From NCBI GenBank assembly GCA_030167145.1, contig CP126532.1:1890001-1922000 (forward strand): a stretch of DNA of 32,000 nt, read 5' to 3'. How positions within the stretch are numbered: position 1 is the first letter of the stretch; each line of letters begins with the position of its first letter. Below, one piece after another: positions 6,256-27,108 of this stretch. The position numbers and the translations under genes were made by a program. The notes beneath the pieces were generated by a model that saw nothing but the letters and a program-made list of their open reading frames with translations, was not told the origin of the DNA and did not search any database. This stretch comes from Ktedonobacterales bacterium (lineage in GTDB: Bacteria > Chloroflexota > Ktedonobacteria > Ktedonobacterales > JADMIN01).

Positions 6256-7392
6256 CTAGCCCTCTGGTTCGGCCTCACCTTCGACGGGCGGATGGAAGAG
6301 CGTCAATTGCATGCCGTCCACGGCGCGCAGCCGCTGGCTGGGATTGCCCCAGGAGGAGGATACGGGCGGACCCTCTGCGGTCGCGCCGTGCGCGGCCAGC
6401 GCCGCCGCCGTCGCCGCGACATCGCCGACCGCGAACGCCAGCCGCACTGGACCGGATACGCGTCGTCCAGCTTCTATCTGGTCGGTGTAGGCGGAATCCG
6501 CTGAGTCGAGAAGCTCAAGCGTCGCGCGGCCCGCGTCCAGGAGCATCCCGCGCCCCTCTGGGGTGTTCCACTCCCGCGTGACGGGCAGCCCGAAGCCCTC
6601 GCGATACATCCGCGCGGCGGCATCGAAGTCTGGCACGGTGAGCGCGACGCGCAGTTCACATCCCGCGCCCGCCGCATCGGCAATTTCCGTCGCAGCGTTG
6701 AGCTCGCGGGCTTTGTAGCGTCCGCTGGGGAAATCGGTAGTGAGCAGGGCAAGGAGGCCGGGCACGCTCGTTTCTGGCAGTGGCCTATCGGAAATGTCCT
6801 CGCCAGGGAAGGCTTGCTGGTGAAGCGCGGTTCGCATATCACCCGGATCAACCCAGTACACGCGCCACTCAGGATGCTCGGCGGCGAGGATGTTGGTGAG
6901 TTGCTCTAGCGCGGCCTTGCTGGAGCCGTAGCCGCCCCAGCCTTCGTATGGTTCGATGGCGGCGTCGCTGGTAATGTTGAGGATGTGGGCGTTGGGTCGT
7001 AGATGCGTGCGAACGGCCTGGAGCAGCGCCAGCGGAGCGATGGTGTTGGCAAGATAGACTTGCGCAAGGACATCGAGGGGGTAATCGAGCAGCGCGGGTT
7101 GGGGGCTGGGGCCGAGGATGCTGGCATTGTTGATGACGGCATCGAGGCCGCCCAGATTGCGTGCAGTGGCGGCCAGCGCCTGGCGGTGCGCGGGATCGGT
7201 GACGTCGCCGGCAAGGGCGACGACGTGGGTGTGCGCGGCAAGTTCGCGGCGGGCGGCTTCGAGGGCGTCGGCGCCACGGGCATCCAGAATAAGTGTCCAG
7301 CCCTGCGCGGCAAGGGCGCGGGCGAGGGCGAGGCCCAGCCCACGTGAGGCGCCGGTGATGAGCGCGGTATGGGGAGATGTTGAGGTGGGCAT
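6256..7392 (-). CDS. short-chain dehydrogenase/reductase fused to a C-terminal glyoxalase/VOC-like domain
   Basis: TGASRGLG Rossmann motif and YGSSKAAL (YxxxK) of classical SDRs. The last ~125 aa (ELRVALTVPDFDAAARMYREGFGL...LTLFH) look VOC-like. Confidence 0.75.
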   Translation of the reverse strand: MPTSTSPHTALITGASRGLGLALARALAAQGWTLILDARGADALEAARRELAAHTHVVALAGDVTDPAHRQALAATARNLGGLDAVINNASILGPSPQPALLDYPLDVLAQVYLANTIAPLALLQAVRTHLRPNAHILNITSDAAIEPYEGWGGYGSSKAALEQLTNILAAEHPEWRVYWVDPGDMRTALHQQAFPGEDISDRPLPETSVPGLLALLTTDFPSGRYKARELNAATEIADAAGAGCELRVALTVPDFDAAARMYREGFGLPVTREWNTPEGRGMLLDAGRATLELLDSADSAYTDQIEAGRRVSGPVRLAFAVGDVAATAAALAAHGATAEGPPVSSSWGNPSQRLRAVDGMQLTLFHPPVEGEAEPEG

Positions 7393-7526
7393 TGCGTTTC
7401 CCTCTTTTCGCGAAGGGGCATAACATACCTTCTGAGGGTCATTCTATGCCGCCGCTTCACCATTCATCATCCCGCAAGAGGCCAGGTTTTGCCCCGTACA
7501 AAGGGACAGTGGCGAAGCAGGTGTGG

Positions 7527-9563
7527 TTAGTCTGCGTTGAGTGCTTTTATCGCGGCGGCGAGGGGTTCGCCGTAGAAGATGGGATCGACTTGCTCAACGA
7601 CATCAGCCGATACCTCTAAGAAGGAGCGCTTATTTTCGCTCGGGATCAGGGCGCGCCGAGCGCCGTTATCCATGGCAACCTGAAGTAGCTCAGCGAGTGA
7701 GCGCGGAGGCAGGATGTTGCCTTGAATGGTCAGATCGCCGATGACAACGAGTGCTGGACGTACTGAGCGTTCCTTGATGGCGGAGTAGAGCGCAATGAAG
7801 AATGCGATGCCAGCCTGGGCGCGCTGACCCGAACCGGTGAGGTCAACGGCTTGAACATGGTAATCGTAGCTGGCAAGATCACGATCTACCCCCAGTTCGC
7901 GGGCACGCGCACGCATGTAATCATAGGCGGTGGTCAGTGAGGCTTTGGTAGCAGTGTCAGGGCTGCCAGTAATCTTGAGTTTGCCGCTGCCGTTGCCAAT
8001 TTTGCCCACTTCGATGCGGTGGAGCGCGACCTTGTCTTCGTCAGTGAAGGTGGCGGAGTAGATGCTTCCGGGCGGAAGGGGGTCAGATGAGATGAGATCG
8101 CGGCCACCCTCCTCAGGTACACCGACAAAGTACTCTTGCATCGTTTCGTGGTCGATATACGAAAAGCTGGTCTGATAGTACTCGAAGGAGCCGAGCTTCT
8201 TCAGTTGCTCTTTGACCCGCCGGCGCCCTTCCAACGCGAACTCCAGATAGTCGCGCAGCTCGCCAGGCGTGACCTGACGGTCGGGATGAAGCAGTTTCAC
8301 CAGCCCCGAGACGGTCTTGCGGACGGCTTTGGCATCACGCGTATTGAGATGTGCGCCAAGGGAAAAATGGGTATCAATGATATCGGTAAAGTTTTGCTTG
8401 CGTAGCTCGCGGACGGCCTCGGCAAGATAGTCTACGACGAAGCCATAGCGTTCGGTTTGGAGGTGCGTTGCCATTTTCGGCATCTCCCAACCGGGCAGAT
8501 AGTAGTGAAGGCGATCAATGAACGCCATGTCGTCACGCATGGCGTCAGGCAATGGCGCGAAGAGATGCGACGTTCTGACAAGCACATCAATAGGTTGGTT
8601 GGTATTGCCCAGGAAGACCATTGAGGCATCGGCGCCTAATTCTTCGCGCCCACGGCTGAACGAACCGGATTCCATGTAATCTTTGAGGATCTGGATAGCG
8701 GATGTGTCGCTGAATTGGATACCAGCAACTTCGTCGAAGGCGACGACGTCCCAGAGGCCGACGAGTCCCATCTTGCCGGTGCCCATGTTGTAGAAGAGGT
8801 TGGCAACGGTGGTTTTGCCGCCGGAAACGAGAATGGCATAGGGAGTGGTTTCGCGGTAGATGAAGCTTTTGCCGGTGCCGCGCGGACCTAGCTCGATGAA
8901 GTTATAGTTGCGCTCGATCATCGGGATGAGGCGTGCGAGGAAGAGCAGCTTGAGGCGCCACTGCATGCCGTCAGGTTCGATGCCGATGCTGCGGAGTACG
9001 AGGTCGGCCCACTCGCTGGTGGTGAAGTGCTGGCGCGCTTCGACGTAGTCGGTGAGGGTGAAGCCCGCGAGTTGGATCGGCTTGAGATCGGTGACGTAGA
9101 AGGGATGGCTCTTGGGATCGTCATCTTTGTCGTCGCCGCGATAGTCGAGGTTGACCTGTGCCCAGATGCCGCCTTCGAGCAGGCGCGGATACTGGCGGAC
9201 GAGGTGGTCGGGGACATGGAGGTAGCGATTGCCGAAGTTGGCCATCTCGCCCCAGTCATCTTTCTCGGTGGAGCGCACGCGGATCTTGTCTATGTAGACG
9301 CCCTGGCCGCGGTCCTTGACGGCGAACATCGCTTTGTTGGCTTCGTCGGGGCGGATGAAGTTTTCGGAGAGGGTGAAATTGACGAGGCGCAGACCAGCTT
9401 GAATGGCGGCGGGGTCATCGGTCGCGCAGTATTTGCCCAGCAGGTATTCGAGGACATAGACCGGTACATTGGCACCGACTTTGACCGCGTGGACGAGGTC
9501 TTTGCGGACGACTTTGCCGGCGAAGATATCCGTGACTTTGCGGTCTAGCTCTGACGCGGACAT
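7527..9563 (-). CDS. brxL: BREX Lon-like protease/ATPase BrxL
   Basis: N-terminus DIFAGKVVRKDLV..VPVYVLEYLLGKYC, Walker A GPRGTGKS and a C-terminal Lon-protease-like region (VIGDLTIQGNILP). It is the last gene of the cluster, directly after pglZ. Confidence 0.9.
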   Translation of the reverse strand: MSASELDRKVTDIFAGKVVRKDLVHAVKVGANVPVYVLEYLLGKYCATDDPAAIQAGLRLVNFTLSENFIRPDEANKAMFAVKDRGQGVYIDKIRVRSTEKDDWGEMANFGNRYLHVPDHLVRQYPRLLEGGIWAQVNLDYRGDDKDDDPKSHPFYVTDLKPIQLAGFTLTDYVEARQHFTTSEWADLVLRSIGIEPDGMQWRLKLLFLARLIPMIERNYNFIELGPRGTGKSFIYRETTPYAILVSGGKTTVANLFYNMGTGKMGLVGLWDVVAFDEVAGIQFSDTSAIQILKDYMESGSFSRGREELGADASMVFLGNTNQPIDVLVRTSHLFAPLPDAMRDDMAFIDRLHYYLPGWEMPKMATHLQTERYGFVVDYLAEAVRELRKQNFTDIIDTHFSLGAHLNTRDAKAVRKTVSGLVKLLHPDRQVTPGELRDYLEFALEGRRRVKEQLKKLGSFEYYQTSFSYIDHETMQEYFVGVPEEGGRDLISSDPLPPGSIYSATFTDEDKVALHRIEVGKIGNGSGKLKITGSPDTATKASLTTAYDYMRARARELGVDRDLASYDYHVQAVDLTGSGQRAQAGIAFFIALYSAIKERSVRPALVVIGDLTIQGNILPPRSLAELLQVAMDNGARRALIPSENKRSFLEVSADVVEQVDPIFYGEPLAAAIKALNAD

Positions 9564-9592: not shown

Positions 9593-12208
9593 TTAGAATA
9601 GAATGTCCAGATCAATTTCGTCGAGACGTTGTAACTCGCGTCCGGTGGTGGCATCGAGCAGGTGGATGGAGACGCGCTGTGGCGGCAGGTGGTCGCGCTC
9701 GATATGCAGGATGGCGGTGTCGGGCGCTATGGTGAGCGGGTCATCATCCTGAAAGCGCGGTTGTATCTCACCAGTGGCTTCACTATAGCCGTAGTCTGCG
9801 GCAACCAGCCGGGAGATGATGTCGCTCCCCGCGCGAATCTCGACCCGCACGGGCGGGAGCGCGGTGTCGAATAAGCTGACGCGCTGCCCGGCGATCTGGA
9901 CGGAGCAGACACGGGAGGTGATTTTCTGCGAGCCAAGGGTGAGTCGCCATGCAATCTCGCGCCCCTCGCTGCTCGCGAGTGCTGCCGCGCGCGCCGTTGG
10001 GGTGATCACGACGACGGGAATCGCCATTTCTTGGGGGGATAGCCCGCCGTGGAAATAGGCGCGCGCGCCTCCGGGTAGTTTGAAGGCGCCAAAGCCCCAG
10101 GGTGTGGCAAGCTCCAGATCGGTGTCGTCCAGGTCGAAGGCGGCCAGCGGCGCGCGCAGATAGGCTTCGCTGGCAGCGCCACCACGCCCGATCCAGACAC
10201 GACGGTGCAGGTCGCAGGTGTGGCCGCCGGGTGGCTCAATTTTCATGTCGCTGCCGAGTTCATCACTGAAGAGAAAGCCGTGGTCGGCGGTGACGATGAT
10301 CTGTTTGCAGTGCAGCTCACTCAGTCGGCGGACGCCGCGCACCAGATTGGCGAGCAGTGCGTCCATGACGGTGTGCGCGAGGCTGATATTGTCCAACTCG
10401 CAAATGGCGTCAATTTCTTGTGAGGTAACGAGGATCAGGTCAGCGTCTTCGATGTTTTTCTTTACGGCATTTTGGGTTGTGAGCAGAGCATCAAGCGTGG
10501 TTGCAAATACGCGTGTCGGGCGGTGGGCGGTGGATGGGACCTGTTCTTTGAGCCATTTGATGCGGCTGTCGCGGTCGCGCAGGACGGTGTCACGCAGGTG
10601 CAGGGCAAGATTGCCATTGGGGGCGGGCACAACCTTCACCCCTTCTTCGGCGCCAGGGAGGAGCGCGGCCATACCAATGGGCGTGATGGTGGGTACGGTA
10701 CCTGCGGCAACGGCGAGGCGCGCGTCGTACCAGTCACCCAGGCTCTGGACGAAGATGCGCGCCATCTCATAGCGCAGGGCATCTACCAGGATGTATGCGG
10801 TTTTGCCAGCGCGCAGCGCTTCGGTGACATGGCGTGTGTAGATCTCGGTCTGGCGCTGGATGCCCGGAAGTTGGAAGCCTGCGTCCACCAGCGCATGGGT
10901 ATAGCGCACCGCAAGGGTATCGCCGACGCGCATGTACCGCTGGCGGGCGTGGGTGAGGAGCTGTTCGAGGGTGGGGTGGCGCGCGATGGACTCAAAGCGA
11001 CGGCTCTGTTGCTCTAGCTCGCGCTGGAGGGTATCTAGCTCGCACCAGGGGCGCTCGCCGTCGGTGTACGCATGCAGGATAGCGGCCGCCGAGAGGGTAG
11101 CGTGCTGGAGCGCGGCTTCGATCTCTGCCGCGCACAGCAGGAGGTTGCCCGCCGTGGCGCTGAGGGTCCAGCGGTCGTAGGCGTCAGGCAGGCGCTGCGC
11201 CCAATAGTCGCGCTTGCGCTGCTGGATGAGGTCGAGCAGTGTGGTGGATGGCGCGTCGCGTAGCGTGGTCTCCAGGGCGGTTTGGAGCGCGGTTTCGATG
11301 GCGGCGAAGGTTTCGCAGTCGCGTAGCTGCGCAAGGTCGAAGGGAATGCTGGACAGGCCAAGTTCGCGCTCGACGCGGTTGGCGTAGTCGGCATAGCTGT
11401 CGGCGAGGTCGCGCGTTTGGCGCCACCGCCGGACGAGCCGGAGGCACGCCTCACGCGGAGCCAGCTCCGTGGCAATGTTGACGGTGGCAAGCTGTGGAGG
11501 AACCGGCGGGTGAAGGCTGGCGAGAAGTTCAGTACACAGGAGGTGGCGCGCGAGACGCAGGCGCAACGTGGGGAGCGGCTCATCTGGCGGTAGCGGAATG
11601 CCGTAGGTTTCGCCAAGCAGCGCCGTGAGGTCGGGTTGAGCGTGTTTGGCGGCGATCTCGGTGTCGAATGTGTCGCCGGAGAGCAACTTGAGCGCCACTT
11701 CGTCGGGTATACCCGTGCCGAAGATGACGGCGATGACGCCGTGCGCTTCGGGGCTGCTGACGTGATCGCCGAGGCGATCCAGGTCGGCGAGGGAAAGCTG
11801 CCCTTCGTTGGCCTGCTTTTCGATGCGCTGAGCGTGTTCTACGCCGAGTACGTCTTTCAGCGCGGCCTTGGCGATGACTGAGAGGCGGGTGTTGCGCTGC
11901 CAGGGCTGCTGGCCGGGCTTGAGAACGACGCCAGCGGCGGTCAGTTCGATGAGCGCATCGTGGGTGTCGTCTTCAGCGAGGGGCACGTAGACGACGAGGC
12001 GCGGCGGCTGTTCGCCCTCCAGTAGCGGCGCGACATCGTGGCGGAGTTGAAAGAAGCTGCCTGCGTAGCGGGCGATGGTGGTATCGGGGAGGGTGAGCGC
12101 GGAGGCGAGGTCGCTATAGTGTCGTTCGGGGTCGAACCAGACGACGAGCCGCTTTTCGGTGACCTGTTTGGCGATCAGGTCGCGTAGATAGTCGCTGACG
12201 ATTCCCAT
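9593..12208 (-). CDS. pglZ: BREX alkaline-phosphatase-superfamily protein PglZ
   Basis: 871 aa with the PglZ core landmarks AYILVDALRYEMA and IIVTADHGF. It lies between pglX and brxL as in type-1 BREX. Confidence 0.9.
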   Translation of the reverse strand: MGIVSDYLRDLIAKQVTEKRLVVWFDPERHYSDLASALTLPDTTIARYAGSFFQLRHDVAPLLEGEQPPRLVVYVPLAEDDTHDALIELTAAGVVLKPGQQPWQRNTRLSVIAKAALKDVLGVEHAQRIEKQANEGQLSLADLDRLGDHVSSPEAHGVIAVIFGTGIPDEVALKLLSGDTFDTEIAAKHAQPDLTALLGETYGIPLPPDEPLPTLRLRLARHLLCTELLASLHPPVPPQLATVNIATELAPREACLRLVRRWRQTRDLADSYADYANRVERELGLSSIPFDLAQLRDCETFAAIETALQTALETTLRDAPSTTLLDLIQQRKRDYWAQRLPDAYDRWTLSATAGNLLLCAAEIEAALQHATLSAAAILHAYTDGERPWCELDTLQRELEQQSRRFESIARHPTLEQLLTHARQRYMRVGDTLAVRYTHALVDAGFQLPGIQRQTEIYTRHVTEALRAGKTAYILVDALRYEMARIFVQSLGDWYDARLAVAAGTVPTITPIGMAALLPGAEEGVKVVPAPNGNLALHLRDTVLRDRDSRIKWLKEQVPSTAHRPTRVFATTLDALLTTQNAVKKNIEDADLILVTSQEIDAICELDNISLAHTVMDALLANLVRGVRRLSELHCKQIIVTADHGFLFSDELGSDMKIEPPGGHTCDLHRRVWIGRGGAASEAYLRAPLAAFDLDDTDLELATPWGFGAFKLPGGARAYFHGGLSPQEMAIPVVVITPTARAAALASSEGREIAWRLTLGSQKITSRVCSVQIAGQRVSLFDTALPPVRVEIRAGSDIISRLVAADYGYSEATGEIQPRFQDDDPLTIAPDTAILHIERDHLPPQRVSIHLLDATTGRELQRLDEIDLDILF

Positions 12209-12324: not shown

Positions 12325-14436
12325 CTATTTGCCCTTCACGTAGCCCTTCGCGCGCAGTTGCTGGCCGATGGAGGACCAGTCGTATTTGCCGGTAAGCAGT
12401 TGTTGCCATGCTGCTTTGGCTTCTTTCCATGGTATCACTTCGCAGAAGGGGGCGATGTTGAGGAGCACGCCGTCGTTGAGGTCGGGGGTGAGGTAGTGGC
12501 GGGCGGCGCGGTCGAGGGCGTCGTGAAATTCGCGCAGGTCGGCGAGCAGGGTTTCTTGGCGGTCCAGGGCCTGGGCGGCGCGCCGGGCTTCGGGGCCGGT
12601 GGGTCCGGCGGCGGCTTTGGCGGCGTGTAGTTCGTCGAGGCGCTGTTCTTCGAGCCGGATTTTGGGCAGGAGGTGGAGGGTGAGGGCTTTGAAGATGAGG
12701 TCGGCGTCGAGGCGGTGGTAGTAGAGCCAGATGGCGTAGTGGCGTTTGGGGGATTGCAGCAGCCAGTAGATGGGGGCTTTGCGGCGGCTCTTGGAGTAGC
12801 GCGAGATGTGGAAGTCGAAGAAGAGGCGCGGGTTGCGGAGATATTCGCGCAGGTCGCGCACGCCGAGCAGCGCGCAGGCTTCGGCTTCGATGGCGCTGGC
12901 GCGGTCGCCCCAGAGGTGATCGAGGACGAGGCGGATGCGGCGCAGGAGGTCGTTGGGGGCGTCGGGGTCGTCTACGAGGATGCCGTCCCAGGCGATACCT
13001 AACCCCCCGGCCCCCTTCCCTGCGAGGGAAGGGGGAGTGGAGGGGGCGTCGAGCGTGGTGGGGTCGGGGAGGGTGATGGCGTTGGGACGGGTGCGGAGCC
13101 AGGCTTCGCTGGCGATGTGGTCGCGGGTGGCGGGGAGGCCGTCGTGGCCGACCAGCGCGCCGGGGGCGCAGACGGGCAGCGGGGCGAAGGGGTCGGCAAG
13201 GCGCGGGGCGAGCGTGGGGTCGTGGGCGATACGCACGTCCCAGCGGCCAAAGGCGCAGCCGAGGGCGTACATGATGAGGTTGGCAGCTTCGGTGCGGGCG
13301 CGCTGAAGTCCGTTGCCGGCATTGGCGTTGGATTGAGCATCGCGCTCTTCGTCGCGGTCGTCGCCAGCTTCGTCGCCAGTCGCCACGGCTCCTACTTCCG
13401 CTGGCGGCGAAGATGCCTCGATATGGGCGCGATCATCGGGGGAGAAGCCGTAGAGGGCGTAGCAGCGGTCATCTATCTCGCGCTGGATGGTGGCGAGGCG
13501 CTGGACGCGGGCGGCGTCTGCGTTGGCGAGGAGGCTGAGGGCGGCGGCGAGGGTGGGCTGGGCGCGCAGGCGGACGAGCGCGGGGACGGTGAAGGGGTGG
13601 GTGACTTCGTCGTCGCGGTCAGATTCCCGCTTGCAGTCGTGGGCCTCGCGGGCGAGGGTGGCGAGGGTGTGCGCGTCATCGGCGCTGAGGTCGGGGACGG
13701 GGGTACGCTGGACGACACCGACTTCGTAGGAGCCGAACGCCATTTGCATCGAGAGCAGCGCGCCGAAAGAGGCTGAGTTGACCATGGCGAGCAACGCGAG
13801 GAGATCTGTCGGCTCGTCATCTGAGACGAATAGGGCCGGGCCTTTGTCGGCGAAGATGCAGCCAGCGGGCATGACGCGCACGCTGAAGCCGCCTTGCGTG
13901 CGGCGGGGGTAGGTGAGGCCGGGGCGGAAGTAGTAGTCGAGGGCCTCGGGGCGCTCTATCTCGCGACCGGGGCGTCCATAGAAGTTGCGGTAGGTGTGGC
14001 GCGATTCGTCCCAATCAGCAAGTAGGTGCATATCGTAGTAGAAGGGCGAATAGCTACCGCCTTTCGCAAATGTTGCCCATCTGATGTTCCAGCTAACTGT
14101 AATGGGTAATACCTCCCACCACGTTCGAACACGTTGGAAATCATCGCCAGTGCTTGAGCCTCGGCGCGCCTCACGTCCATCCCCTTCGAAGGGCGGGAGT
14201 TCGGTGAAGAGTCGGCGTACATCCTCGCTGACCCAGTAGGCGAAGGGGGAGCCGGGGATCTGGCGGAAGGAGGCGGGGTCGAGGGTGAAGAGACCTAACC
14301 CCCCCAGCCCCCCTTCCCTACGTGGGAAGGGGGGAGTGGTGGCGGCGCGGTGGGCGGCGGTGGCGGCGCGTAGGGCGGCGGGTTTGTCGTCGGCGGCGAG
14401 GAGGCGGATGAAGGTGGTGGTGTGGGGCATGGTCAT
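12325..14436 (-). CDS. pglX: PglX C-terminal half (post-methyltransferase / putative specificity region) as a separate ORF
   Basis: ATG 14436 with AGGA 7 nt upstream. IPGSPFAYW, TGDDFQRVRTWWEV, KAPIYWLLQSPKRHYAIWLYYHRL and YDWSS are colinear with the region after the MTase domain of the intact paralogue (IPGSPWVYQ, SGNSRFLRFWWEV, KRPIYWLLQSPKRGYGVYLF, YDWSR). No internal stops over 703 codons. Confidence 0.8.
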   Translation of the reverse strand: MTMPHTTTFIRLLAADDKPAALRAATAAHRAATTPPFPRREGGLGGLGLFTLDPASFRQIPGSPFAYWVSEDVRRLFTELPPFEGDGREARRGSSTGDDFQRVRTWWEVLPITVSWNIRWATFAKGGSYSPFYYDMHLLADWDESRHTYRNFYGRPGREIERPEALDYYFRPGLTYPRRTQGGFSVRVMPAGCIFADKGPALFVSDDEPTDLLALLAMVNSASFGALLSMQMAFGSYEVGVVQRTPVPDLSADDAHTLATLAREAHDCKRESDRDDEVTHPFTVPALVRLRAQPTLAAALSLLANADAARVQRLATIQREIDDRCYALYGFSPDDRAHIEASSPPAEVGAVATGDEAGDDRDEERDAQSNANAGNGLQRARTEAANLIMYALGCAFGRWDVRIAHDPTLAPRLADPFAPLPVCAPGALVGHDGLPATRDHIASEAWLRTRPNAITLPDPTTLDAPSTPPSLAGKGAGGLGIAWDGILVDDPDAPNDLLRRIRLVLDHLWGDRASAIEAEACALLGVRDLREYLRNPRLFFDFHISRYSKSRRKAPIYWLLQSPKRHYAIWLYYHRLDADLIFKALTLHLLPKIRLEEQRLDELHAAKAAAGPTGPEARRAAQALDRQETLLADLREFHDALDRAARHYLTPDLNDGVLLNIAPFCEVIPWKEAKAAWQQLLTGKYDWSSIGQQLRAKGYVKGK
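12997..13037. repeat. GC-hairpin repeat element, single copy, in frame in the pglX C-half
   Basis: ACCTAACCCCCCGG + CCCCCTTCCC-TGCGA-GGGAAGGGGG, translated as TPPSLAGKGAGGLG. Confidence 0.85.
14293..14336. repeat. GC-hairpin repeat element, single copy, in frame near the N-terminus of the pglX C-half
   Basis: ACCTAACCCCCCCAG + CCCCCCTTCCC-TACGT-GGGAAGGGGGG, translated as PPFPRREGGLGGLG. This is the long tract class (C7, C6/G6). Confidence 0.85.
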
Positions 14437-14458
14437 GGTGGTGTCCTGGTGTTAGAAT
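14430..14458 (+). promoter_or_regulatory. candidate antisense promoter TGGTCA-N17-TAGAAT
   Basis: -35-like TGGTCA at 14430-14435, a 17-nt spacer, then -10 TAGAAT at 14453-14458. It overlaps the start codon and SD of the pglX C-half on the opposite strand. Confidence 0.3.
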
Positions 14459-14502
14459 GAGCGCAATCCAGTGATCTAGAGGGGGAAGGTTGGAGCCTTC
14501 GG

Positions 14503-14531
14503 CGGCCCTGTATAGGGCCGTTTTTGTTTAT
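14503..14531 (+). terminator. intrinsic-terminator-like hairpin oriented on the plus strand
   Basis: CGGCCC-TGTATA-GGGCCG followed by TTTTTGTTTAT. It is preceded by a second small hairpin, GAAGG-TTGGAG-CCTTC (14485-14500). The T-tract is on the plus strand only, antisense to the operon. Confidence 0.45.
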
Positions 14532-14547
14532 GCGAGTTGTGACTGAT

Positions 14548-14970
14548 CTAGGGAATGTACCAGCCTCTACGCGAGCGGCGGCCTTTGCCATATTGCGCTG
14601 GGATGCCGATGCCTAGCTCGTCTTCGGTGCGGTGCGTGCGGTGGGTGCGGGTAATGTTGGTGTCGCGGTATTCGGTCTCCCAGTCGTGGTGTTTGTGGCG
14701 CGGTCGGTCAGGCTTTTTGCGCGTGCGCTTCGCCGGTGGTCGTGGCTGGGCGGGACGGGTGAACCAGTCGGTGATGCCTCGCGCGGGCTTGGTTTCGAGT
14801 CCGGCGGGCGTGGGCAGCCCAGGGCCGGTCACGTAGTAGAAGCAGTGTGTGCCTTTCGCTGGCTGCTGCCGGAGCTTGTCCGCGTGGGTGGTGGCTTCGG
14901 CGAGCGTCTTGAAGCTGGCGGCTAGCTTATGCTGGTCCCCGATGCGGCGGTAGACCGAGTATTTGCTCAT
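14548..14970 (-). CDS. hypothetical 140-aa protein with a basic R/K/H/P-rich tail, inside the pglX split
   Basis: ORF 14548..14979. ATG 14970 has GGAGAGG 9 nt upstream. The sequence is MSKYSVYRRIGDQHKLAASFKTLAEATTHADKLRQ... followed by PAKRTRKKPDRPRHKHH...GKGRRSRRGWYIP. I recognised no family. Confidence 0.45.
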   Translation of the reverse strand: MSKYSVYRRIGDQHKLAASFKTLAEATTHADKLRQQPAKGTHCFYYVTGPGLPTPAGLETKPARGITDWFTRPAQPRPPAKRTRKKPDRPRHKHHDWETEYRDTNITRTHRTHRTEDELGIGIPAQYGKGRRSRRGWYIP

Positions 14971-15048
14971 GGTACCCATCCTCTCCGCGAGTTCAAGGGC
15001 GAACGTCTGTCGCGATCATGCCAACAGTATGAGTATGGCGACGATAGT

Positions 15049-17409
15049 TCATGGGTTTTTCTCCAGAACGTAGGCGGCGGTTTCGACCATGGCGGTATCG
15101 AGGACGCCGTAGCCGAGGTCGGCGAGGGCGATGGGGCGGGCTTCGGTGAGCAGGATGTCTTCGCGCCACTTCTGGAACGAGGTGAGGAAGAAGCCGGTGC
15201 GCGAGGTAATGGCGCCGAGGCGTCCGCTGGGTTCGAGCAGGGCGAGGCCGCGTTCGACGAAGGCGGCGTAAAGATCATTTTTGGTGCGGGGATAGGTTTT
15301 CTCGATGTAGGGCTTGGCGGGGGCGCTGGGTTCGCCGAACGGGGGATTCATCAGTACGACGCTGTAGCACTTCTCCAGCAGTTCGATGAGCGCGAAGCCA
15401 CGGGCGGCGTCCTCGGCGAAGAGGTGGCGAGTGTAGTCGTCGTCGCTGGTGGTGGCGTCTTCGGCAAAGCGGCGCAAGGCGGCGAGGACGCGCGGCTCGG
15501 CCTCGGTTTCGTAGAAGCGCGCGTCGGAGACACCTTCGTAGTTGAGCGTCTGCTGTTGTGGTGGCTGCCCCTGCGCGAAGAGGGTAAGCTGGACGTTGCC
15601 ACCGCCGGTTCTGATCCACTCGCGTTTGGCGTTGGCGATCTCCTGGCGCAGGGCGACCTCGACCTGGAGCAGCGAGCCAGCCTCACCGGCGAGGCGCATC
15701 TCACCCCATATATCGCGGACAAAGGGGTCGAGCGCGGGCGGATCGAGGGTCTTGGTGAAGGCGTCGAGCAGGTCACGCTCGCCGGGCATTGGCTCGGCAT
15801 AGACGAGATTGGCGCGGCGGATGGGCGGGCGCTGGTCGCGCGGGAGGCTGAGCGCGGCGTATTCGCGCTGGGCGCGCAGCCAGAGGGCGAGCGCGGCGAT
15901 CTGGACGGCGCGGAGGTCAATATCTACGCCGTGCAGGTTGTGGCGTAAGATCAGGGCGGGAACGGCGGCTTGATACGCGGGGAAGTCGCTGGCGAACTCG
16001 CTCTGGAGCGCGGGGCCGAGGTCATCATCTGCCCAGGCTTCGTGATAGATGCGCACGAGCAGGTCGAAGCAGTAGAGCAGGAAGTGGCCGCTGCCGCAGG
16101 CGGGATCAAGGATACGTAGTTCGCGGGGGTCGCGCTTGGCGCGATGGGGGATGATTTCGACTTCGCGATTCCACGCCTCGCAGATGGCGCGATGGAGTGC
16201 CCGCCAGTAGTCCAGGTCTTTGCCCTCTGGCGTCTCGCCGAAGTGATGCCAGCGGCGCTGCTCAAAGAAGAGACAGAGGCGTAGCTCTTCGAAGCTGCCG
16301 TTGATATTGCCCGTCTCGACGTATTCTTGCTGCTTGTCGTTCGCAATGGAAGCGACCATATCGAAATCGCGCGCTTCCGCAGATGTATCGTGCGCCAGGT
16401 GTGTCTGGGCGTAGGCATAGCCGTCTACCGTGAGCGCATAGCGCATTATGGCGTCAACAGAGGTTGCGGCGGGATTGGGGCGGGTCCACAGCTCTCCACC
16501 ACCCTCGCCCGGCATCACCCACGCGTCCTGTTCGGCATTGAACATGAGCGGCTCGTGCTGACCACGGCGCAGCCAGATGGGGTGTGGGGTGATGAGCATC
16601 GTTTCACAGAGGGTGGCGAGGCTGGTGTGGCCGTGGGTCATCTCCCACCAGAGGCGCCCAAGCGTGTTATCTGCCAGGAATTCGACGACGTAGCGCGGGG
16701 TGTAGAACTGATTGCGGAAGGCTAACTCGTAGCTGTTGCGCGGGGCCTGGCTGGCTTTGCGCGCCTCGTCGCGTAGCTCTTTGGGGGTGAAGTACTGGTA
16801 AATCCAGCCGATGGTCTCGTCGGCGTCCCAGACGCTGGCTAGCTCGGCATCGTTGAGGAGGGCGAGCACGTCTTCGAGCACGCGCTGTGGCGGGAAGAGC
16901 CGGTTGGCGGGGTCGTGCGGCGAGAAGAGGGCGGGCAGCTCGCTGGCCAGGGTCTGCCCAGTCCATTCGAGGAAGTGGCGATAGGCGAGATCCTGGCGGC
17001 CAGCGGACCAGAGGGTTTCTTCGCCGGGATTGTCGGCGAGATAGAACTTGAAGCCGTTGCTGTTGAGGCTACGGGAGACGGTCTCGCGGATGAGCTTGCG
17101 GCGTTCGAGCAGCTTGTAGGCGCAGAGGCGATTGAGATGCGTGAAGGCGACTTCGCGGATAAGCTGAGCGACGGCATCGTGCGCGGAGAAGCGGCGGGCG
17201 CCGAGGTGGGCGAGATACCGCACGACCTGCGCGCGATAGGCGAGGTCGGCGGGGGAGAGGTGGGCCATGCGCGCGGCTGGCTCGACTGCGCCGTGGCGGT
17301 GGATGCCAAACTGGCCTTCGAGTAGCTCGGCGACGGTGTCTTCGAGCAGCTTGCGGCACTGTGTGACGGCGAGGCGCAGGGTGTTGCGGATAGATTTATC
17401 GAGTGTCAT
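15049..17409 (-). CDS. pglX: PglX N-terminal half (N6-adenine methyltransferase module) as a separate ORF
   Basis: ETIGWIYQYF, FYTPRYVV, motif I ILDPACGSGHF and motif IV VVLMNPPFG are present. It ends ...TAAYVLEKNP-TGA at 15049-15051. Its ATG overlaps the stop of the upstream gene (TGATG). Confidence 0.85.
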   Translation of the reverse strand: MTLDKSIRNTLRLAVTQCRKLLEDTVAELLEGQFGIHRHGAVEPAARMAHLSPADLAYRAQVVRYLAHLGARRFSAHDAVAQLIREVAFTHLNRLCAYKLLERRKLIRETVSRSLNSNGFKFYLADNPGEETLWSAGRQDLAYRHFLEWTGQTLASELPALFSPHDPANRLFPPQRVLEDVLALLNDAELASVWDADETIGWIYQYFTPKELRDEARKASQAPRNSYELAFRNQFYTPRYVVEFLADNTLGRLWWEMTHGHTSLATLCETMLITPHPIWLRRGQHEPLMFNAEQDAWVMPGEGGGELWTRPNPAATSVDAIMRYALTVDGYAYAQTHLAHDTSAEARDFDMVASIANDKQQEYVETGNINGSFEELRLCLFFEQRRWHHFGETPEGKDLDYWRALHRAICEAWNREVEIIPHRAKRDPRELRILDPACGSGHFLLYCFDLLVRIYHEAWADDDLGPALQSEFASDFPAYQAAVPALILRHNLHGVDIDLRAVQIAALALWLRAQREYAALSLPRDQRPPIRRANLVYAEPMPGERDLLDAFTKTLDPPALDPFVRDIWGEMRLAGEAGSLLQVEVALRQEIANAKREWIRTGGGNVQLTLFAQGQPPQQQTLNYEGVSDARFYETEAEPRVLAALRRFAEDATTSDDDYTRHLFAEDAARGFALIELLEKCYSVVLMNPPFGEPSAPAKPYIEKTYPRTKNDLYAAFVERGLALLEPSGRLGAITSRTGFFLTSFQKWREDILLTEARPIALADLGYGVLDTAMVETAAYVLEKNP

Positions 17410-18221
17410 CAGGAAACACCCCTCAGCGTGACGACGAGGTCGGCGTGTTGGGCGTGTTCGGCCACGAGTTCATCGAGGGCGAGGCAGATGTGCTTGATGG
17501 TATCCACGGATTGCGTGGCCCAGGAATAGCTGATCTCCTGCACCTTGCCGTCGGGGCTGGCTTGTGCGCGGTCGGCGCGGTGGACGATGTCGTTGCGGCG
17601 GCGAGTGGTTTCGTCAATGACGCTCATCAGCTCTTTCTTGTCGCGCTGGAGCTTGGCGGCGATCTGATCCCAGGGCTTTTCGAGGCTGAGCAGCGCGCCG
17701 ACAACATGCACACCCTTGCGCGAACTGAGGTATTTGAAGGAGGTCTGCGCGAGGATGCGGTTGGCGATGAAGAGCGGGGCGTCGGGATCGCCGAGCAGCC
17801 GGAGGGTCTCGGAGAGCGAGAAGGTGAGGTCTTTGAAATACTCTTCGATGCTGGGATCGGGTGGCAGGAAGTCGCGCCCGCGCGCGGCGATCACCTGGGG
17901 GAGATTGGCGCGGAGCACGGATGGCAAGTAGGCGTCGAGTGCGGTGCAAGCGGCGACGACCGATTGGCGCAGCAGGTTGGCGAGCGACTGGCGTCGCAGG
18001 GCGCTCTTGGGGATCTGGGCGCTCTCGCGGACGAGGCCGACGAAGATCTCGTTGTAGATCAGCATCAGGTCTTCGTCGTGCTGGGCATGGACGATGCCGG
18101 CCAGCGCGGTGACCAGCTCGCCATCGGTCTGGATGGTCTGGCAGTCGAGCAGGCGGTAGACGCGCAGCAGCAGTTCGGCGGGGCGCATGGTGTCTTCGAA
18201 TACCTGGCGTGGACTCGTCAC
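17409..18221 (-). CDS. HEPN-like (Rx4H) protein embedded between brxC and pglX
   Basis: GTG start at 18221 preceded by AAGGAGAAGGAGGG with a 6-nt spacer. The stop overlaps the pglX ATG by 1 nt. It is a helical 270-aa protein with ETTRRRNDIVHRAD near the C-terminus (RNDIVH = R-N-x3-H, 17580-17597). The family assignment is inferred only. Confidence 0.55.
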   Translation of the reverse strand: MTSPRQVFEDTMRPAELLLRVYRLLDCQTIQTDGELVTALAGIVHAQHDEDLMLIYNEIFVGLVRESAQIPKSALRRQSLANLLRQSVVAACTALDAYLPSVLRANLPQVIAARGRDFLPPDPSIEEYFKDLTFSLSETLRLLGDPDAPLFIANRILAQTSFKYLSSRKGVHVVGALLSLEKPWDQIAAKLQRDKKELMSVIDETTRRRNDIVHRADRAQASPDGKVQEISYSWATQSVDTIKHICLALDELVAEHAQHADLVVTLRGVS

Positions 18222-18244: not shown

Positions 18245-21200
18245 CTATTCGACGATGATGCTGGCGCCCTGGGCGAGCAGCTTGAACAGTTCGTCGCGGA
18301 GCTTGTCGAGCGCGGCGTTCACGGCGGCTTCGGTGTCCAGGGAGTCGGGAAAGAATTCGGCGGCGCGCACGTGCGAGATGGCGCTCTGGCCGCGCTCCGC
18401 CGTATCGGGCGCAAGGGTCAGCTCCTGGATGCGCGCGAGCGCCTGGGATTTGAGGCCAGCGAGGGCGAGCAGGTCGGATTCGATTTGGCTGAGCGTCGCG
18501 TGGCAGTGCGGGCAGACGCTGGCCGTATCGTCGAGATGAAGACCTTCGATGCAGGCGCGCTGGGTCAGGGGATCGAGCAGCGCCGGACGGGAGGCTTCGG
18601 GCACATTGGGCCAGTTGGCGCTGCCCTTGATCGCGTCAATCGCGGCATCGAAGTGACTGTGCCGTTTCGCGTGCAGCCCCTCGTAGACATCGGCGTAGGC
18701 GGCGGCGAGCGCGCGGGTCATGTCGCGCAGGTGGGGCAAGCGCTCGTAGAGCGTGCTGTCACCGAGGATGTGCTGTATTTCCGCGGCTTTGTCGTCCAGC
18801 CCGTCGGTTGCGCCACGGGCTTGCAGGATGGGCCATTGCTGGTCGAGGACACGCCGGGCGTCGCGGACGGTGGCGACGATGTGCTGCTCGGTCAGCGCTT
18901 CGCGGATGCGCCGGGCCTGGGCGCGCAGCTCTTTGAGGGAGGTGCTTTCGCCGGCGAGGGTGCGCACGCAATCGTCTGAGGCGGCGTTCTGGATGGCGGT
19001 GAGGGACTGGTAGTAGTCGTCGAGCAGGTCCATGCCGGGGAGGTCGTTGGCGCGGACCTCGGCGCGGGCGGGCAGCAGGAGCGCAATCTCCGCGTTGGCC
19101 AGCTTCTTCAGGCTTTCGGCGATGGCGCCTTCTTCGACATCCACCTCATCGCCGGTGAGGGTCTCGAAGCCACGCACGGCGGCGGTGAGGGTGCGCAAAT
19201 CAATAGATTCGCGCGGGGTGAACGAGGCGCTGCGGAAGGCGGGGTTGGAGGTGAGCGGAGTGCGGCAGAGTGGGTCTTGCGCGTTGCGGTAGCGCCGGCC
19301 CTGATAGGTCACCTCGACGGCGCCCGCGCGCAGCAGCAGCGCCAGCACCAGCTTGATGACGTCGAGTTCCCAGCCGTAGGAAAGGCCGGTGAAGTGGGCC
19401 TCCAGCTCTTTGCCGGTGACGCGGTTGCCGTAGGAGTGCTCTTTCTTGAGATAGTCGAGCACCTCTTTGGCGATCTCGGCGTGGACATGGGGGACGAACT
19501 TCGCGCCCTCTTTGGTGACGAGGTTGAGGCCGTGCTCGCCACCGTAGAATACTTGCGGGAGCGCGTTGAGGTTGGCGGCTTTGAGCACTTCGTCGGCTTC
19601 GTTGCCAGTGAGGCCGGGGCGAGCGCCCATCTCGAGCTTGGGATAGAGGTCGGGGACGACGGCGTTGAAGAGATTTCGGAAGATTTCGGCGAGCGATCTG
19701 CCGAGGTCGGAGGCGTCTTTGGAGATGCCGCGAAAGATGCTCTGGCCGCGTGCGAGCGCCGCCTCCAGCTTCTCGCGCAGGCGACTCTGGTAGCGCGCTT
19801 GCTCGCGTTTCTCGGCATCGAGGAGGGGGGTAAGCTCGGCGGCACGCTCGCCCTGCGCGCCCGCCTGGCTATATTTGGCGATCATCTGGCTGGAGGCATG
19901 CACCTGATTGATCAAGGTGTCTAACTCGGCATCCAGGGCGAAGATCCAGTAGATGTCGTTGGTGTGGTCGCCCATGCGGCTCTCGCTGCGGGCGTCTTCC
20001 AACCGGCTGGCAAGCTCGGTCGGCGCGTCGGCGACGCGGAGGGTGAGCGGAATATCGCCCGTCGCAAGGCGCACGTCGTCCATGGTCAGTCCGACCTTGA
20101 AGGTGCGCTTGAGCGGGTGCTGGTAGGTGAGCAGTTTTTGGTCGGAGAAGATTTTTAGCAGGGACTCGCGTTGAATCTCGTTGCGCTCGCGGGGTTTGGG
20201 TTCGAGATACTGCTTGCGCTCGGTATCCCAGTTCTTCTCCTGGGCGGTGAGCAGTTTCCAGCCTTCTTCGGTATGGCGGACGAACTGCGCTTGCTCCAAC
20301 CTGCGGATCGCCGCTTGTACCTGCGGCAGCGGCGCGGACGCGCCCACCTGATCCACCAGCACGGCGGCGACGTTGGCGTCGGTGCGAGGCAGGTCGCGCA
20401 CGAATTCGAGCAGGCAGAGCGCCTTGGCGACGCGGGCGGCCCAGCCGGCATCGTCGCGGTCACTCTTGAAGCGTTCGGTGATGTCGCTGATGTCTTTCTG
20501 CTTCTCAGACGAGAGACTGCCCTCGACCAGCTCGTAGATCAGATCGAGGGTGACGAGCCGCCCGACGGGCTGCCGCGCGAGATCGGTGCGCGGCGCGGTG
20601 AGCATGGAGTGCGCTTGTTTGATGATGGTGCGGTTGCTGCCGCTGATGTGGCGCGGCGCGCCGGGTTGGGAGCGGATGCCAGTCATGATATCTATCGAGA
20701 GGTCAATGTAGTGCGGCAGGTAGGGGTAGAAGCGCACGAAGTCGTCTTCGCGCACCTCACTCTTGCGGCTGGTGCGCTCCAGATGGCAGGAGGTGTTGAG
20801 CTGGCCCTGCGCCTGGGCGAAGATCTGGCGCAGTTCGGGGACGGCGCTGGGCTTCTTATCGAGCACGCGCTTGGTGGCGACTTCGCTGATGTCGGCGGGG
20901 GTGAGGTCCACGCGATGGCGGAAGCGGTCCTGCACCATGGCGAGCTGCACGCGGCGCGAGTCGAGGGCGGAGACGACTTCTTCGAGTTTCTCCTGGCTGG
21001 TGACGATGATCCAGATGGGGGCGATGGCCTGGCGGGCGCGGATGCGGTTCTTGCTCTCCTGGCCGAAGTGTTCGACCACGGCGCGCAGATCGTTGAGCTT
21101 GTCGGCGCTCTGCGAGACATACTGGCCCACTTCGTCTACGATGAAGGTGAGCGCTTTGCCGGGGCGGCGGCGCGCCATTAGCTCGAAGGCGCGATCCACC

Positions 21201-21913
21201 AGCTTTTTCGTGTTGATGTCTGCGGTACGCCCAGCCAGTGACCGCGCCCAAGAGTCGGCGGCGGGGTAGGTGCGTGGGTCGAGTTCGTGCAGCGCGGCAC
21301 TGGCGCGATTCAGCTTCGTTGCGCCAGTGCGGACAACCTCCCAGGGTGGGCCGCCGTGCGCCTGAGCACAGGCGACGAATGCGTCGAGCTGGCCATCGCG
21401 CTCAAGCTCAATTTCTAGCTCGGCGATATCGAAGTCTTCGGCGTAACCCAGCGAGCGCAAGAGCTGGGCGTAGAGAAGCTCAGTGATGCGCTCGTTATTG
21501 GTACGTGCGGAACGCTCGACCATGACATCGAACATGATGACTTCGGTGGGGATGCGCGCGGTGATGAAGTCTACCAGTTGCGAGATGGCGGGGTCGTCAA
21601 GCTGCTGCTTAAAGAGGTCGGCGGCGCGGTGGCCGAGCACGGTGCGATTGGCGAGGACGTAGCCGAGGTTTTTGGCGAAGGAGGATTTGCCGGAGCCGAA
21701 GAAGCCAGAGATCCAGATGCCGACGCCTTCGGTGAGATCGGTGGGCGCGTCGGCCATGGCTTTGAGCAATCCGTGATAGTGTTCGCGGATGCGTTTGGTG
21801 GCGACGTATTCGGTGAGTTCACTGTAGACGGTCTTTTCGTCTTCCTGGGTCACCTTGATGATTTCTTCGATGTGCTGGTTCAGGTCGCGGCTGAGCAGGT
21901 CTTGTATGTGCAT
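18245..21913 (-). CDS. brxC: BREX P-loop ATPase BrxC
   Basis: 1222 aa. The N-terminal region is typical of BrxC (MHIQDLLSRDLNQHIEEIIKV...GIWISGFFGSGKSSFAKNLGYVL, Walker A). Confidence 0.9.
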   Translation of the reverse strand: MHIQDLLSRDLNQHIEEIIKVTQEDEKTVYSELTEYVATKRIREHYHGLLKAMADAPTDLTEGVGIWISGFFGSGKSSFAKNLGYVLANRTVLGHRAADLFKQQLDDPAISQLVDFITARIPTEVIMFDVMVERSARTNNERITELLYAQLLRSLGYAEDFDIAELEIELERDGQLDAFVACAQAHGGPPWEVVRTGATKLNRASAALHELDPRTYPAADSWARSLAGRTADINTKKLVDRAFELMARRRPGKALTFIVDEVGQYVSQSADKLNDLRAVVEHFGQESKNRIRARQAIAPIWIIVTSQEKLEEVVSALDSRRVQLAMVQDRFRHRVDLTPADISEVATKRVLDKKPSAVPELRQIFAQAQGQLNTSCHLERTSRKSEVREDDFVRFYPYLPHYIDLSIDIMTGIRSQPGAPRHISGSNRTIIKQAHSMLTAPRTDLARQPVGRLVTLDLIYELVEGSLSSEKQKDISDITERFKSDRDDAGWAARVAKALCLLEFVRDLPRTDANVAAVLVDQVGASAPLPQVQAAIRRLEQAQFVRHTEEGWKLLTAQEKNWDTERKQYLEPKPRERNEIQRESLLKIFSDQKLLTYQHPLKRTFKVGLTMDDVRLATGDIPLTLRVADAPTELASRLEDARSESRMGDHTNDIYWIFALDAELDTLINQVHASSQMIAKYSQAGAQGERAAELTPLLDAEKREQARYQSRLREKLEAALARGQSIFRGISKDASDLGRSLAEIFRNLFNAVVPDLYPKLEMGARPGLTGNEADEVLKAANLNALPQVFYGGEHGLNLVTKEGAKFVPHVHAEIAKEVLDYLKKEHSYGNRVTGKELEAHFTGLSYGWELDVIKLVLALLLRAGAVEVTYQGRRYRNAQDPLCRTPLTSNPAFRSASFTPRESIDLRTLTAAVRGFETLTGDEVDVEEGAIAESLKKLANAEIALLLPARAEVRANDLPGMDLLDDYYQSLTAIQNAASDDCVRTLAGESTSLKELRAQARRIREALTEQHIVATVRDARRVLDQQWPILQARGATDGLDDKAAEIQHILGDSTLYERLPHLRDMTRALAAAYADVYEGLHAKRHSHFDAAIDAIKGSANWPNVPEASRPALLDPLTQRACIEGLHLDDTASVCPHCHATLSQIESDLLALAGLKSQALARIQELTLAPDTAERGQSAISHVRAAEFFPDSLDTEAAVNAALDKLRDELFKLLAQGASIIVE

Positions 21914-22139
21914 ACCTATCCCCCTGGCCCCCTTCCCTACGAGGGAAGGGGGGAATGTACCTATCCCCCTGGCCCCCTTCCCTACGAGGGAAGGGGGAAG
22001 ACGGACCTATCCCCCTGGCCCCCTTCCCTACGAGGGAAGGGGGGAATGTACCTATCCCCCTGGCCCCCTTCCCTACGAGGGAAGGGGGAAGACGGACCTA
22101 TCCCCCTGGCCCCCTTCCCTACGAGGGAAGGGGGAAGTG
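21914..22139. repeat. tandem array of 5 GC-hairpin repeat units filling the DUF559-brxC spacer
   Basis: Units start at 21914, 21959, 22005, 22050 and 22096, so periods alternate 45/46 bp (a 91-bp higher-order unit). Each unit is ACCTATCCCCCTGG + CCCCCTTCCC-TACGA-GGGAAGGGGG. The spacers alternate between AATGT and AAGACGG. Confidence 0.95.
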
Positions 22140-22538
22140 TTAGTGTGCGGCGTCGGGCGCTGGTGGCGCTGATGTCCGACAGGCGGCGGCGATGCGTGCG
22201 AGAACGCTGGGCAGATCGCGCTGGATGTCGTGATTGGATATGCGCAGCACGCGCAATCCATGGCCGACGAGCACTTGATCTCTCTCTGTATCATACTCCA
22301 CCTGCTCGTTGTGAATGCTACCATCCACTTCGACGACAAGTGCGGCTGCGTGACAGTAGAAATCCACGATAAATCCGGCGATCACTTGCTGACGCCGGAA
22401 GTGAAGCCCTTGCAAGCGATTCGCGCGCAGCCAGTGCCAGAGCAGTTCTTCCTCCTCAGTCATCGCCGCCCGAAATGCCCTGGCTTGTTCCACCTTCACT
22501 GGCGCCACTCGCTGTCCACGGACGATCTTTCGTGCCAT
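22140..22538 (-). CDS. DUF559 (Vsr-like / PD-(D/E)xK fold) endonuclease-domain protein
   Basis: EEELLWHWLRANRLQGLHFRRQQVIAGFIVDFYCHAAALVVEVDGSIHN...DQVLVGHGLRVLRISNHDI matches the DUF559 pattern (LW..LR...FRRQ..ig.yivDF.c....lviElDG..H...D..Rd..L...G..vlRf). Confidence 0.85.
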   Translation of the reverse strand: MARKIVRGQRVAPVKVEQARAFRAAMTEEEELLWHWLRANRLQGLHFRRQQVIAGFIVDFYCHAAALVVEVDGSIHNEQVEYDTERDQVLVGHGLRVLRISNHDIQRDLPSVLARIAAACRTSAPPAPDAAH

Positions 22539-27004: not shown

Positions 27005-27108
27005 TGCGTGACGTGTCCTTCTCTTTCCAGTGTCGTACTCTCGTCGTTGTCTCGTGGTTTGCTCGTCGTACTCTCGCCGTTCATTTCTCAGCGAGCGCAT
27101 GATGACGA

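Follow-up and report, generated by a model that had tools for sequence, protein, structure and literature searches.

A 32,000-nt stretch of a Ktedonobacterales metagenome-assembled genome (MAG), here called the window, carries a bacteriophage exclusion (BREX) operon in which the gene for PglX, the specificity and methylation factor of BREX, is divided into two open reading frames (ORFs) with a third gene between them. The question raised by this locus is whether pglX has been broken by a recent insertion, is decaying, or encodes a working enzyme made of two polypeptides. The analysis favors the last of these, an old and selected two-gene PglX with a cargo slot between its halves rather than the scar of a recent insertion, with a probability of about 0.82. 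The features around the break are the following, with positions given on the forward strand of the window; loci of relatives are coded L001-L093.

15049-17409, minus strand: PglX-N, 786 aa, from the ORF and its translation
14971-15048, minus strand: 78-nt spacer 5′ of gene S, ending in the Shine-Dalgarno-like sequence GGAGAGGA (14979-14986), 8 nt before the ATG at 14970
14548-14970, minus strand: gene S, 140 aa, in the slot between the PglX halves
14501-14522, unstranded: GC-rich hairpin GGCCCT-ATAC-AGGGCC, just after gene S, with a T-run on the plus strand only
12325-14436, minus strand: PglX-C, 703 aa, from the ORF and its translation

A PglX enzyme divided between two genes

The two halves carry the successive domains of PglX. 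PglX-N consists of an N-terminal helical domain followed by an N6-adenine methyltransferase domain, in which the S-adenosylmethionine-binding motif I reads ILDPACGSGHF and motif IV reads NPPF (in the context NPPFG). It ends in ...TAAYVLEKNP followed by TGA at 15049-15051. Its Pfam matches, Eco57I (2e-18) and MmeI_Mtase (9e-8), identify the gamma-class methyltransferase domain that characterizes PglX/BrxX; in PADLOC it matches the PglX model PDLC02527 (2e-216, profile positions 1-659 of 1332) as well as the half-length model PDLC02526, and it matches PglX and BrxX structures in the PDB. PglX-C begins with MTMPHTTTFIRLL (MTMPHTTTF), its first ATG preceded 7 nt upstream by AGGA (14444-14447), and continues with a terminal methyltransferase segment (TTFIRLL), a hinge, a target-recognition domain and the BrxX-specific C-terminal domain, which are the parts that follow the methyltransferase in PglX/BrxX. 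It matches the half-length PglX model PDLC02532 (1e-125), positions 666-1264 of PDLC02527, residues 649-866 and 1024-1211 of 8c45 (E=5e-30) and residues 648-965 of 9ewz, and it retains all 59 invariant columns of a 34-sequence family alignment. Both halves are full-length and free of internal stops, with catalytic motifs intact. The ends and starts of the ORFs, their freedom from stops, the AGGA, the CCATGA positions and the doubled ACCATG, all noted in a preliminary description of this DNA, were confirmed on the minus strand. Since PglX is found here as two ORFs (786 and 703 aa) with another gene in the 612 nt between them, and not as one polypeptide of ~1200 aa, the pair is classed as a two-gene variant rather than a canonical member.

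No PglX residues are missing at the junction, as had been judged by eye. Relative to a fused PglX paralogue that the operon also contains, PglX-N ends at residue 869 and PglX-C picks up at residue 878. When the last 126 residues of PglX-N were joined to the first 207 of PglX-C and compared with E. coli BrxX using HMMER, the joined halves aligned ungapped, in a single stretch, to BrxX residues 497-792, with the junction opposite residues ~607-617 (...WVIKNNHSG-FYKPVFFRLV). Drobiazko et al. described BrxX as two jaws connected by flexible loops, with a methyltransferase domain at residues 211-650 and a flexible hinge at 638-675 (PMC11842806). From this alignment and the published domain limits we place the break ~30 residues N-terminal to the hinge, in a loop near the end of the methyltransferase domain but still within it. 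The split reported in the preliminary description is real, but it does not lie exactly at the boundary between the methyltransferase and the C-terminal region. The site of the break is constant among split loci, between ...AAYxLEK and xxFFRLL, and the fused PglX proteins of L014, L022, L026, L036, L042, L056, L065, L071 and L074 contain a conserved ~85-aa insert (…FS.PK.Q..R.GLKRHQA..EL…) in exactly the same loop, which indicates that this loop is permissive at the protein level too.

In the proposed enzyme PglX-N would supply the N-terminal domain and the S-adenosylmethionine-dependent adenine methyltransferase domain, forming the upper jaw, while PglX-C would supply the last short methyltransferase segment, the hinge, and the target-recognition and C-terminal domains, forming a lower jaw that determines specificity. 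The TTFIRLL segment of PglX-C is predicted to be the last strand of the methyltransferase domain and probably completes its beta-sheet beside AAYVLEK at the end of PglX-N, a pairing that would hold the two polypeptides together. Once reassembled, the halves would be expected to recognize and methylate BREX sites, which are non-palindromic and 6 bp long, in the manner of the single-chain enzyme that defense requires. Purifying selection is evident on both genes, for which dN/dS relative to the four nearest relatives is 0.16-0.21 (PglX-N) and 0.18-0.21 (PglX-C) at dS of ~1-1.5. These nearest relatives are only ~70% identical, and the proteins of the window are singletons in the collections.

Distribution and ancestry of the split

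The split form extends far beyond the window. Homologues of PglX-C with E below 1e-10 number 1572, and nearly every one of the best 120, which come from Chloroflexota, Planctomycetota and other phyla and reach down to 44% identity, stands alone as a protein of 627-761 aa. Half-length PglX models are already part of PADLOC (PDLC02526, 640 positions; PDLC02532, 682 positions). A survey of the 80 reference-genome loci most similar to the C-half of the window, with one genome per species and proportions that are not estimates for the population, found the two parts of PglX fused in 26 loci, split in 40, and without an N-half in view in 14, in 9 of which the C-half ORF is closed upstream. The halves are adjacent in 15 of the 40 split loci and separated by 0.6-8 kb in 23. 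Several cultured isolates carry the split (Sphingobium CECT 9361, Sorangium So ce388, Lamprocystis DSM 4197 and Thioflavicoccus mobilis). In T. mobilis it resides on the complete RefSeq plasmid pTHIMO01 (NC_019941.1, L093), where the halves are annotated as 'DNA methyltransferase' and 'hypothetical protein' and enclose two genes, one for an ATP-binding protein (ATPase) and a DUF2290 gene; the gap between PglX-C and PglZ holds a UPF0175/DUF3368 pair. With pglX divided at the same loop across dozens of genomes, the split is far beyond chance. Comparison of these sequences shows that the fission is old, confined to one permissive loop, and kept by selection.

The preliminary description had proposed a two-ORF ancestor, in which PglX already consisted of a methyltransferase and a specificity subunit coupled in translation. 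Several lines of evidence now support this proposal. Stop and start codons of the halves overlap by 4 nt as ATGA in L007, L034, L055 and L080, as GTGA in L060 and L081, and as TTGA in L031, and the halves overlap by 8 nt in L005, L012 and L015, so that L007 is accompanied by at least nine other overlapping loci. In a neighbor-joining tree, which is a rough one built by a fast distance method without support values, the window falls within a Chloroflexota-rich clade of ~30 loci, all of them split, and L007, itself from a member of the Ktedonobacterales, is sister to the subclade of the window; elsewhere in the tree fused and split forms interleave. The arrangement of L010, where one PglX-N is followed by two full PglX-C genes (6312-8375 and 9992-12055), likewise speaks for two subunits. 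The ancestral form would then have been a 4-nt overlap of the ATGA type with translational coupling of the halves, and a weak hint in the same direction comes from the PglX-C starts, which read NTG-A in 16 of 25 loci, and from the TGA stops of PglX-N, which are preceded by A in 7 of 14.

The two C-halves of L010 share 38-42% identity across the target-recognition part, compared with 80-88% across the C-terminal domain. A 279-aa fragment comprising the target-recognition part only precedes a full C-half at L058 (9905-10744). To judge from their sequences, the extra copies at these two loci may be alternative or exchangeable specificity subunits.

The cargo slot, the CCATGA repeat and rival explanations

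The 612-nt spacer between the halves is mostly filled by gene S, a 140-aa ORF on the operon strand whose mechanical ORF start is at 14979 and whose assigned ATG is at 14970. In its product a beta-beta-alpha-beta domain (residues 1-55) is joined by a disordered, basic linker to a C-terminal motif. The family shares this organization: the N-terminal ~55 residues form a conserved domain, the basic linker varies in length, and the C-terminal motif ELG(I/L)GIPAQxGKGRRxR(R/K)GWYIP is invariant (ELGIGIPAQxGKGRRSRRGWYIP in the window). The AlphaFold (AF2) model is confident only for residues 1-55, with predicted local distance difference test scores (pLDDT) >90 for residues 1-50 and a disordered tail. 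A Foldseek search of the PDB returned nothing below E=0.7, and there was no match to S in Pfam or PADLOC; as a lone gene devoid of Pfam, PADLOC and fold matches it does not qualify as a type II toxin-antitoxin system. The S family is rare, with ~30 clusters (50% identity) in a collection of 1.84 billion representatives, and a metagenome scan added just two new short contigs. Relative to two homologues, dN/dS of gene S is 0.30-0.33. Gene S is very probably co-transcribed with the operon, given its orientation on the same strand, its own Shine-Dalgarno sequence, and the lack of a terminator facing this strand. A promoter and terminator scan found no minus-strand promoter and a sole terminator-like site, which faces the plus strand; because its T-run is on the plus strand only, the hairpin after gene S should not terminate the minus-strand BREX transcript.

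Homologues of S (P0002-P0004) occupy the same slot in L001, L002 and L086/L087, always 80-130 nt upstream of PglX-C, at identities to the window copy of 36-45% (L001, L002) and 38% (L086). The homologue of L003 is in a different context. Further members of the family are present at L091 (477-1304) and L092 (529-1395), ~90-120 nt upstream of the next gene, which, from a by-eye resemblance of its N-terminus, may encode a DUF499-type BREX-related ATPase. If this label holds, the S family is not confined to the PglX slot.

Other relatives fill the slot differently. The order brxC-HEPN-pglX-N-[cargo]-pglX-C-pglZ-brxL is found in L001, L002 and L084-L089 with differing cargo, as listed here for close relatives.

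L084: TacA/TacT
L001: TacA/TacT and S
L086: a 357-aa S-family protein
L088: HigB/HigA
L002 and the window: S alone

At farther loci the cargo includes toxin-antitoxin and abortive-infection-type genes (HicA/HicB, PemK/MazF, AbiEi/AbiEii with SIR2, SocA/Panacea, DUF4160/DUF2442) together with PIN, DUF3800, an OLD-type AAA_15-TOPRIM nuclease, AAA_21 with DUF4435, NB-ARC-TPR, WD40, kinase-FHA/KAP and beta-CASP nuclease genes, nearly all on the operon strand. The relatives of the window carry genes in the gap between pglX-C and pglZ as well. A gene boundary produced by fission would thus have become a slot in which accessory genes were repeatedly placed or exchanged, holding one small gene of a rare family in the window and toxin-antitoxin, abortive-infection or other defense genes elsewhere. 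A family of ~200-aa proteins with no Pfam match directly upstream of PglX-C at L016 (9364-9966), L040 (9294-9899) and L066 (9415-10014), of the Anaerolineae type, is another recurrent occupant next to the C-half.

The case for a different history starts from the hexamer CCATGA, which occurs on the minus strand of the window three times, each time at a gene boundary and all within one 620-nt stretch:

15049-15054, minus strand: CCATGA copy 1, encoding Pro and the TGA stop of PglX-N
14967-14972, minus strand: CCATGA at the start of gene S, missed in the preliminary description
14433-14438, minus strand: CCATGA copy 3, holding the first ATG of PglX-C
14428-14439, minus strand: ACCATGACCATG, in which ACCATG is doubled

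From the two outer copies it had been proposed that a ~610-bp mobile segment recently entered a fused or ATGA-coupled pglX and duplicated a 6-bp target, or that the insertion itself created the split. The geometry is suggestive in that CCATGA flanks the segment exactly, removal of the segment with one copy regenerates an ATGA overlap like those of L007, L034, L055 and L080, and the additional copy at gene S gives an unusual local density. We nevertheless regard a recent insertion as very unlikely. The homologues of S that hold the same slot in L001, L002 and L086 are so diverged from the window copy that the occupant must long predate the lineage, and a target duplication of that age should have decayed; their presence also leaves the idea that the insertion made the split unsupported. 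The cargo-bearing relatives, L001, L002 and L086 among them, have no junction repeat, their PglX-N genes stopping at TAA, TAG or TGA in unrelated contexts, and the PglX-C start that they share with the window (MP.TTF) is the second ATG, at 14428-14430, not the one within CCATGA. The match had been valued at a chance of about 1/256; a junction match of at least 6 nt was found in 1 of 25 cargo loci, namely the window, and in 4.3% of cross-locus control pairings, so that ~1 in 25 is expected and the repeat is no more than chance would provide. Within 14300-15200 the search for terminal repeats and mobile-element signatures gave only short matches at noise level and no terminal inverted repeats, Pfam detected no transposase or integrase domain in the segment, its composition shows no clear shift from the GC content of the flanks, and the 32-kb window holds no second copy of it. 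The inverted repeats, transposase and beyond-chance flanking repeat that mark a transposable element or miniature inverted-repeat transposable element are therefore lacking here, and we judge the CCATGA repeat to have arisen by coincidence, from a TGA stop and two ATG-A starts in a C-rich context, and not as a transposition footprint.

Decay of the canonical pglX, with the fused paralogue between brxB and brxC doing the work, is improbable as well, if a little less so than a recent insertion. An intact fused PglX-like gene does lie in the same operon, and a disrupted pglX has been reported elsewhere, for example in Halobacterium 91-R6 (PMC7002104). A gene in decay is difficult to reconcile with halves that keep their full length, motifs and every invariant residue, with dN/dS of ~0.2 on both at the divergence sampled, or with the same split across phyla, including loci such as L080 and L081 where the 10 kb fetched upstream of the C-half contain no second PglX-like match; overlapping stop and start codons point instead to organized co-translation. 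That the source is a MAG raises the thought of an assembly or sequencing artefact, which we give almost no weight, in that a 612-nt spacer with a conserved gene cannot arise from an indel error and independent assemblies and cultured isolates share the arrangement.

Several considerations weigh against a selected two-gene PglX and keep our estimate below certainty. Frameshift errors could account for some of the adjacent 'split' calls in MAGs, but not for the cases with cargo or those in isolates. Because the tree has no support values, how often fission and fusion occurred, and in which direction, is uncertain. The fused paralogue could in principle supply the methyltransferase function, the association of the halves and methylation of DNA by them are proposed from sequence, and the complementation of strands between them draws on the BrxX alignment and not on a model of the complex. 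Finally, three CCATGA copies at three boundaries remain an odd coincidence, for which the constraints imposed by start and stop codons are the only explanation offered.

Relation to known systems and the surrounding operon

The two-gene enzyme resembles single-chain PglX/BrxX of Salmonella (8C45/8Q56) and E. coli (9EWZ) in its position between brxC and pglZ, its domain order and its motifs, and is homologous to it over both halves; it differs in comprising two genes with a third between them and in a total of 1489 aa rather than ~1200-1225. A comparison with Type I HsdM and HsdS is also apt, since catalysis and specificity reside on separate polypeptides in those systems and probably do so in the PglX halves, and the PglX C-terminal domain structurally resembles Type I specificity subunits (PMC11341690). 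L010, where a single methyltransferase half is accompanied by two specificity halves whose target-recognition parts differ, recalls Type I loci with several hsdS genes. In both kinds of system accessory toxin or abortive-infection genes are embedded in the operon (PMC3710099; PMC5499597), as PrrC is in the Type Ic system EcoprrI (PMC3710099). Unlike HsdM and HsdS, the PglX halves are homologous to the single-chain Type IIL/BREX enzyme, their break falls inside the end of the methyltransferase domain instead of separating independent proteins, and there is no HsdR.

Accessory genes described as 'backup effectors' are likewise embedded in BREX operons (PMC11341690, PMC12839542), and in both settings toxin-antitoxin, abortive-infection and nuclease genes lie on the same strand between core genes. 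BrxU and PARIS are embedded between pglX and pglZ (PMC11341690), whereas the slot considered here is inside pglX itself and its occupant in the window falls outside every described family. Disrupted or phase-variable pglX genes also lack one continuous ORF, but the split genes have no frameshifts, internal stops, junction repeat tracts or recombinase, are under purifying selection and are shared across phyla. A two-gene PglX is not described in the structural papers (PMC11341690, PMC11842806), in a 2026 comparative BREX survey, or in the literature searched, for which journal coverage was incomplete. The structural papers and the survey consider PglX a single chain throughout, and the word 'split' does not occur in the survey. 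The two-subunit PglX with an intragenic cargo slot thus appears to be undescribed, as a variant of a known system in which the allele of the window is ordinary for its clade.

A more general model, which we advance tentatively and at slightly less than even odds, is that one permissive loop of PglX has been repeatedly split, re-fused or expanded by the 85-aa insert, and that the resulting boundary became a dedicated landing site for exchanged accessory genes. The cargo genes may be expressed together with BREX and act as its guards, in the way that PrrC does for EcoprrI. S would then represent a new factor, accessory or regulatory, that BREX and BREX-related systems have in common.

One consequence of a PglX in two polypeptides is that the catalytic and recognition jaws do not have to be produced as one chain. 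For the Salmonella enzyme, Went et al. reported that the C-terminal domain could not be expressed on its own (PMC11341690), and natural halves would therefore be useful for reconstitution, subunit swapping and specificity engineering. The split form links BREX methyltransferases to the logic of separate M and S subunits in Type I systems, and its intragenic slot could be mined for new defense or toxin genes. It also matters for annotation: the C-half is labelled 'hypothetical protein' both in NC_019941 and in the MAG of the window, so BREX systems with a split PglX may be scored as incomplete by annotation pipelines.

Pfam and PADLOC together identify a complete type 1 BREX operon on the minus strand of the window, with BrxA, BrxB, BrxC, PglX (as two genes, 12325-17409), PglZ and BrxL all present. 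In operon order, its genes outside the split pglX are as follows.

27665-28483, minus strand: BrxA, from PADLOC
27109-27690, minus strand: BrxB, from PADLOC (1.7e-29)
22649 to ~27007, minus strand: fused PglX paralogue, ~1452 aa, between brxB and brxC
22140-22538, minus strand: DUF559 (Vsr-like endonuclease) gene, between the PglX paralogue and brxC
18245-21913, minus strand: BrxC
17409-18221, minus strand: HEPN-like (RiboL-PSP) accessory gene, 270 aa, between brxC and pglX-N
9593-12208, minus strand: PglZ
7527-9563, minus strand: BrxL

The paralogue is contained in a 1640-aa mechanical ORF (22649-27571) that overlaps brxB; its homology to PglX-N runs from ORF residue 190 onward, and the true start is probably near 27007, giving the protein of ~1452 aa. 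A second PglX is similarly found 5′ of brxC in L001, L012, L016, L017, L035 and L041. The HEPN-like gene shares one base with the start of pglX-N and is kept in L001, L084 and L086, and missing from L088. A DUF559 domain is present too in one C-half homologue, P0015 (838 aa), according to its precomputed Pfam annotation.

A perfect palindrome, CCCCCCTTCCC-N5-GGGAAGGGGGG, lies at 14308-14334 (unstranded) as an in-frame insert in the N-terminal linker of PglX-C (PPFPRREGGLGG). Copies of this element, with the palindrome CCCCCTTCCC-N4-5-GGGAAGGGGG, form five tandem units of ~60 bp upstream of brxC (21920-22140), and the same palindrome is inserted repeatedly in the fused paralogue (22649-27007), where it gives rise to PPSLGGKG motifs; it looks like a repetitive extragenic palindromic (REP)-like element tolerated within coding loops. 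A 613-aa protein encoded at 70-1911 on the minus strand, farther downstream than the BREX operon and several housekeeping genes, combines an N-terminal TIR domain with PQQ-type beta-propeller repeats.

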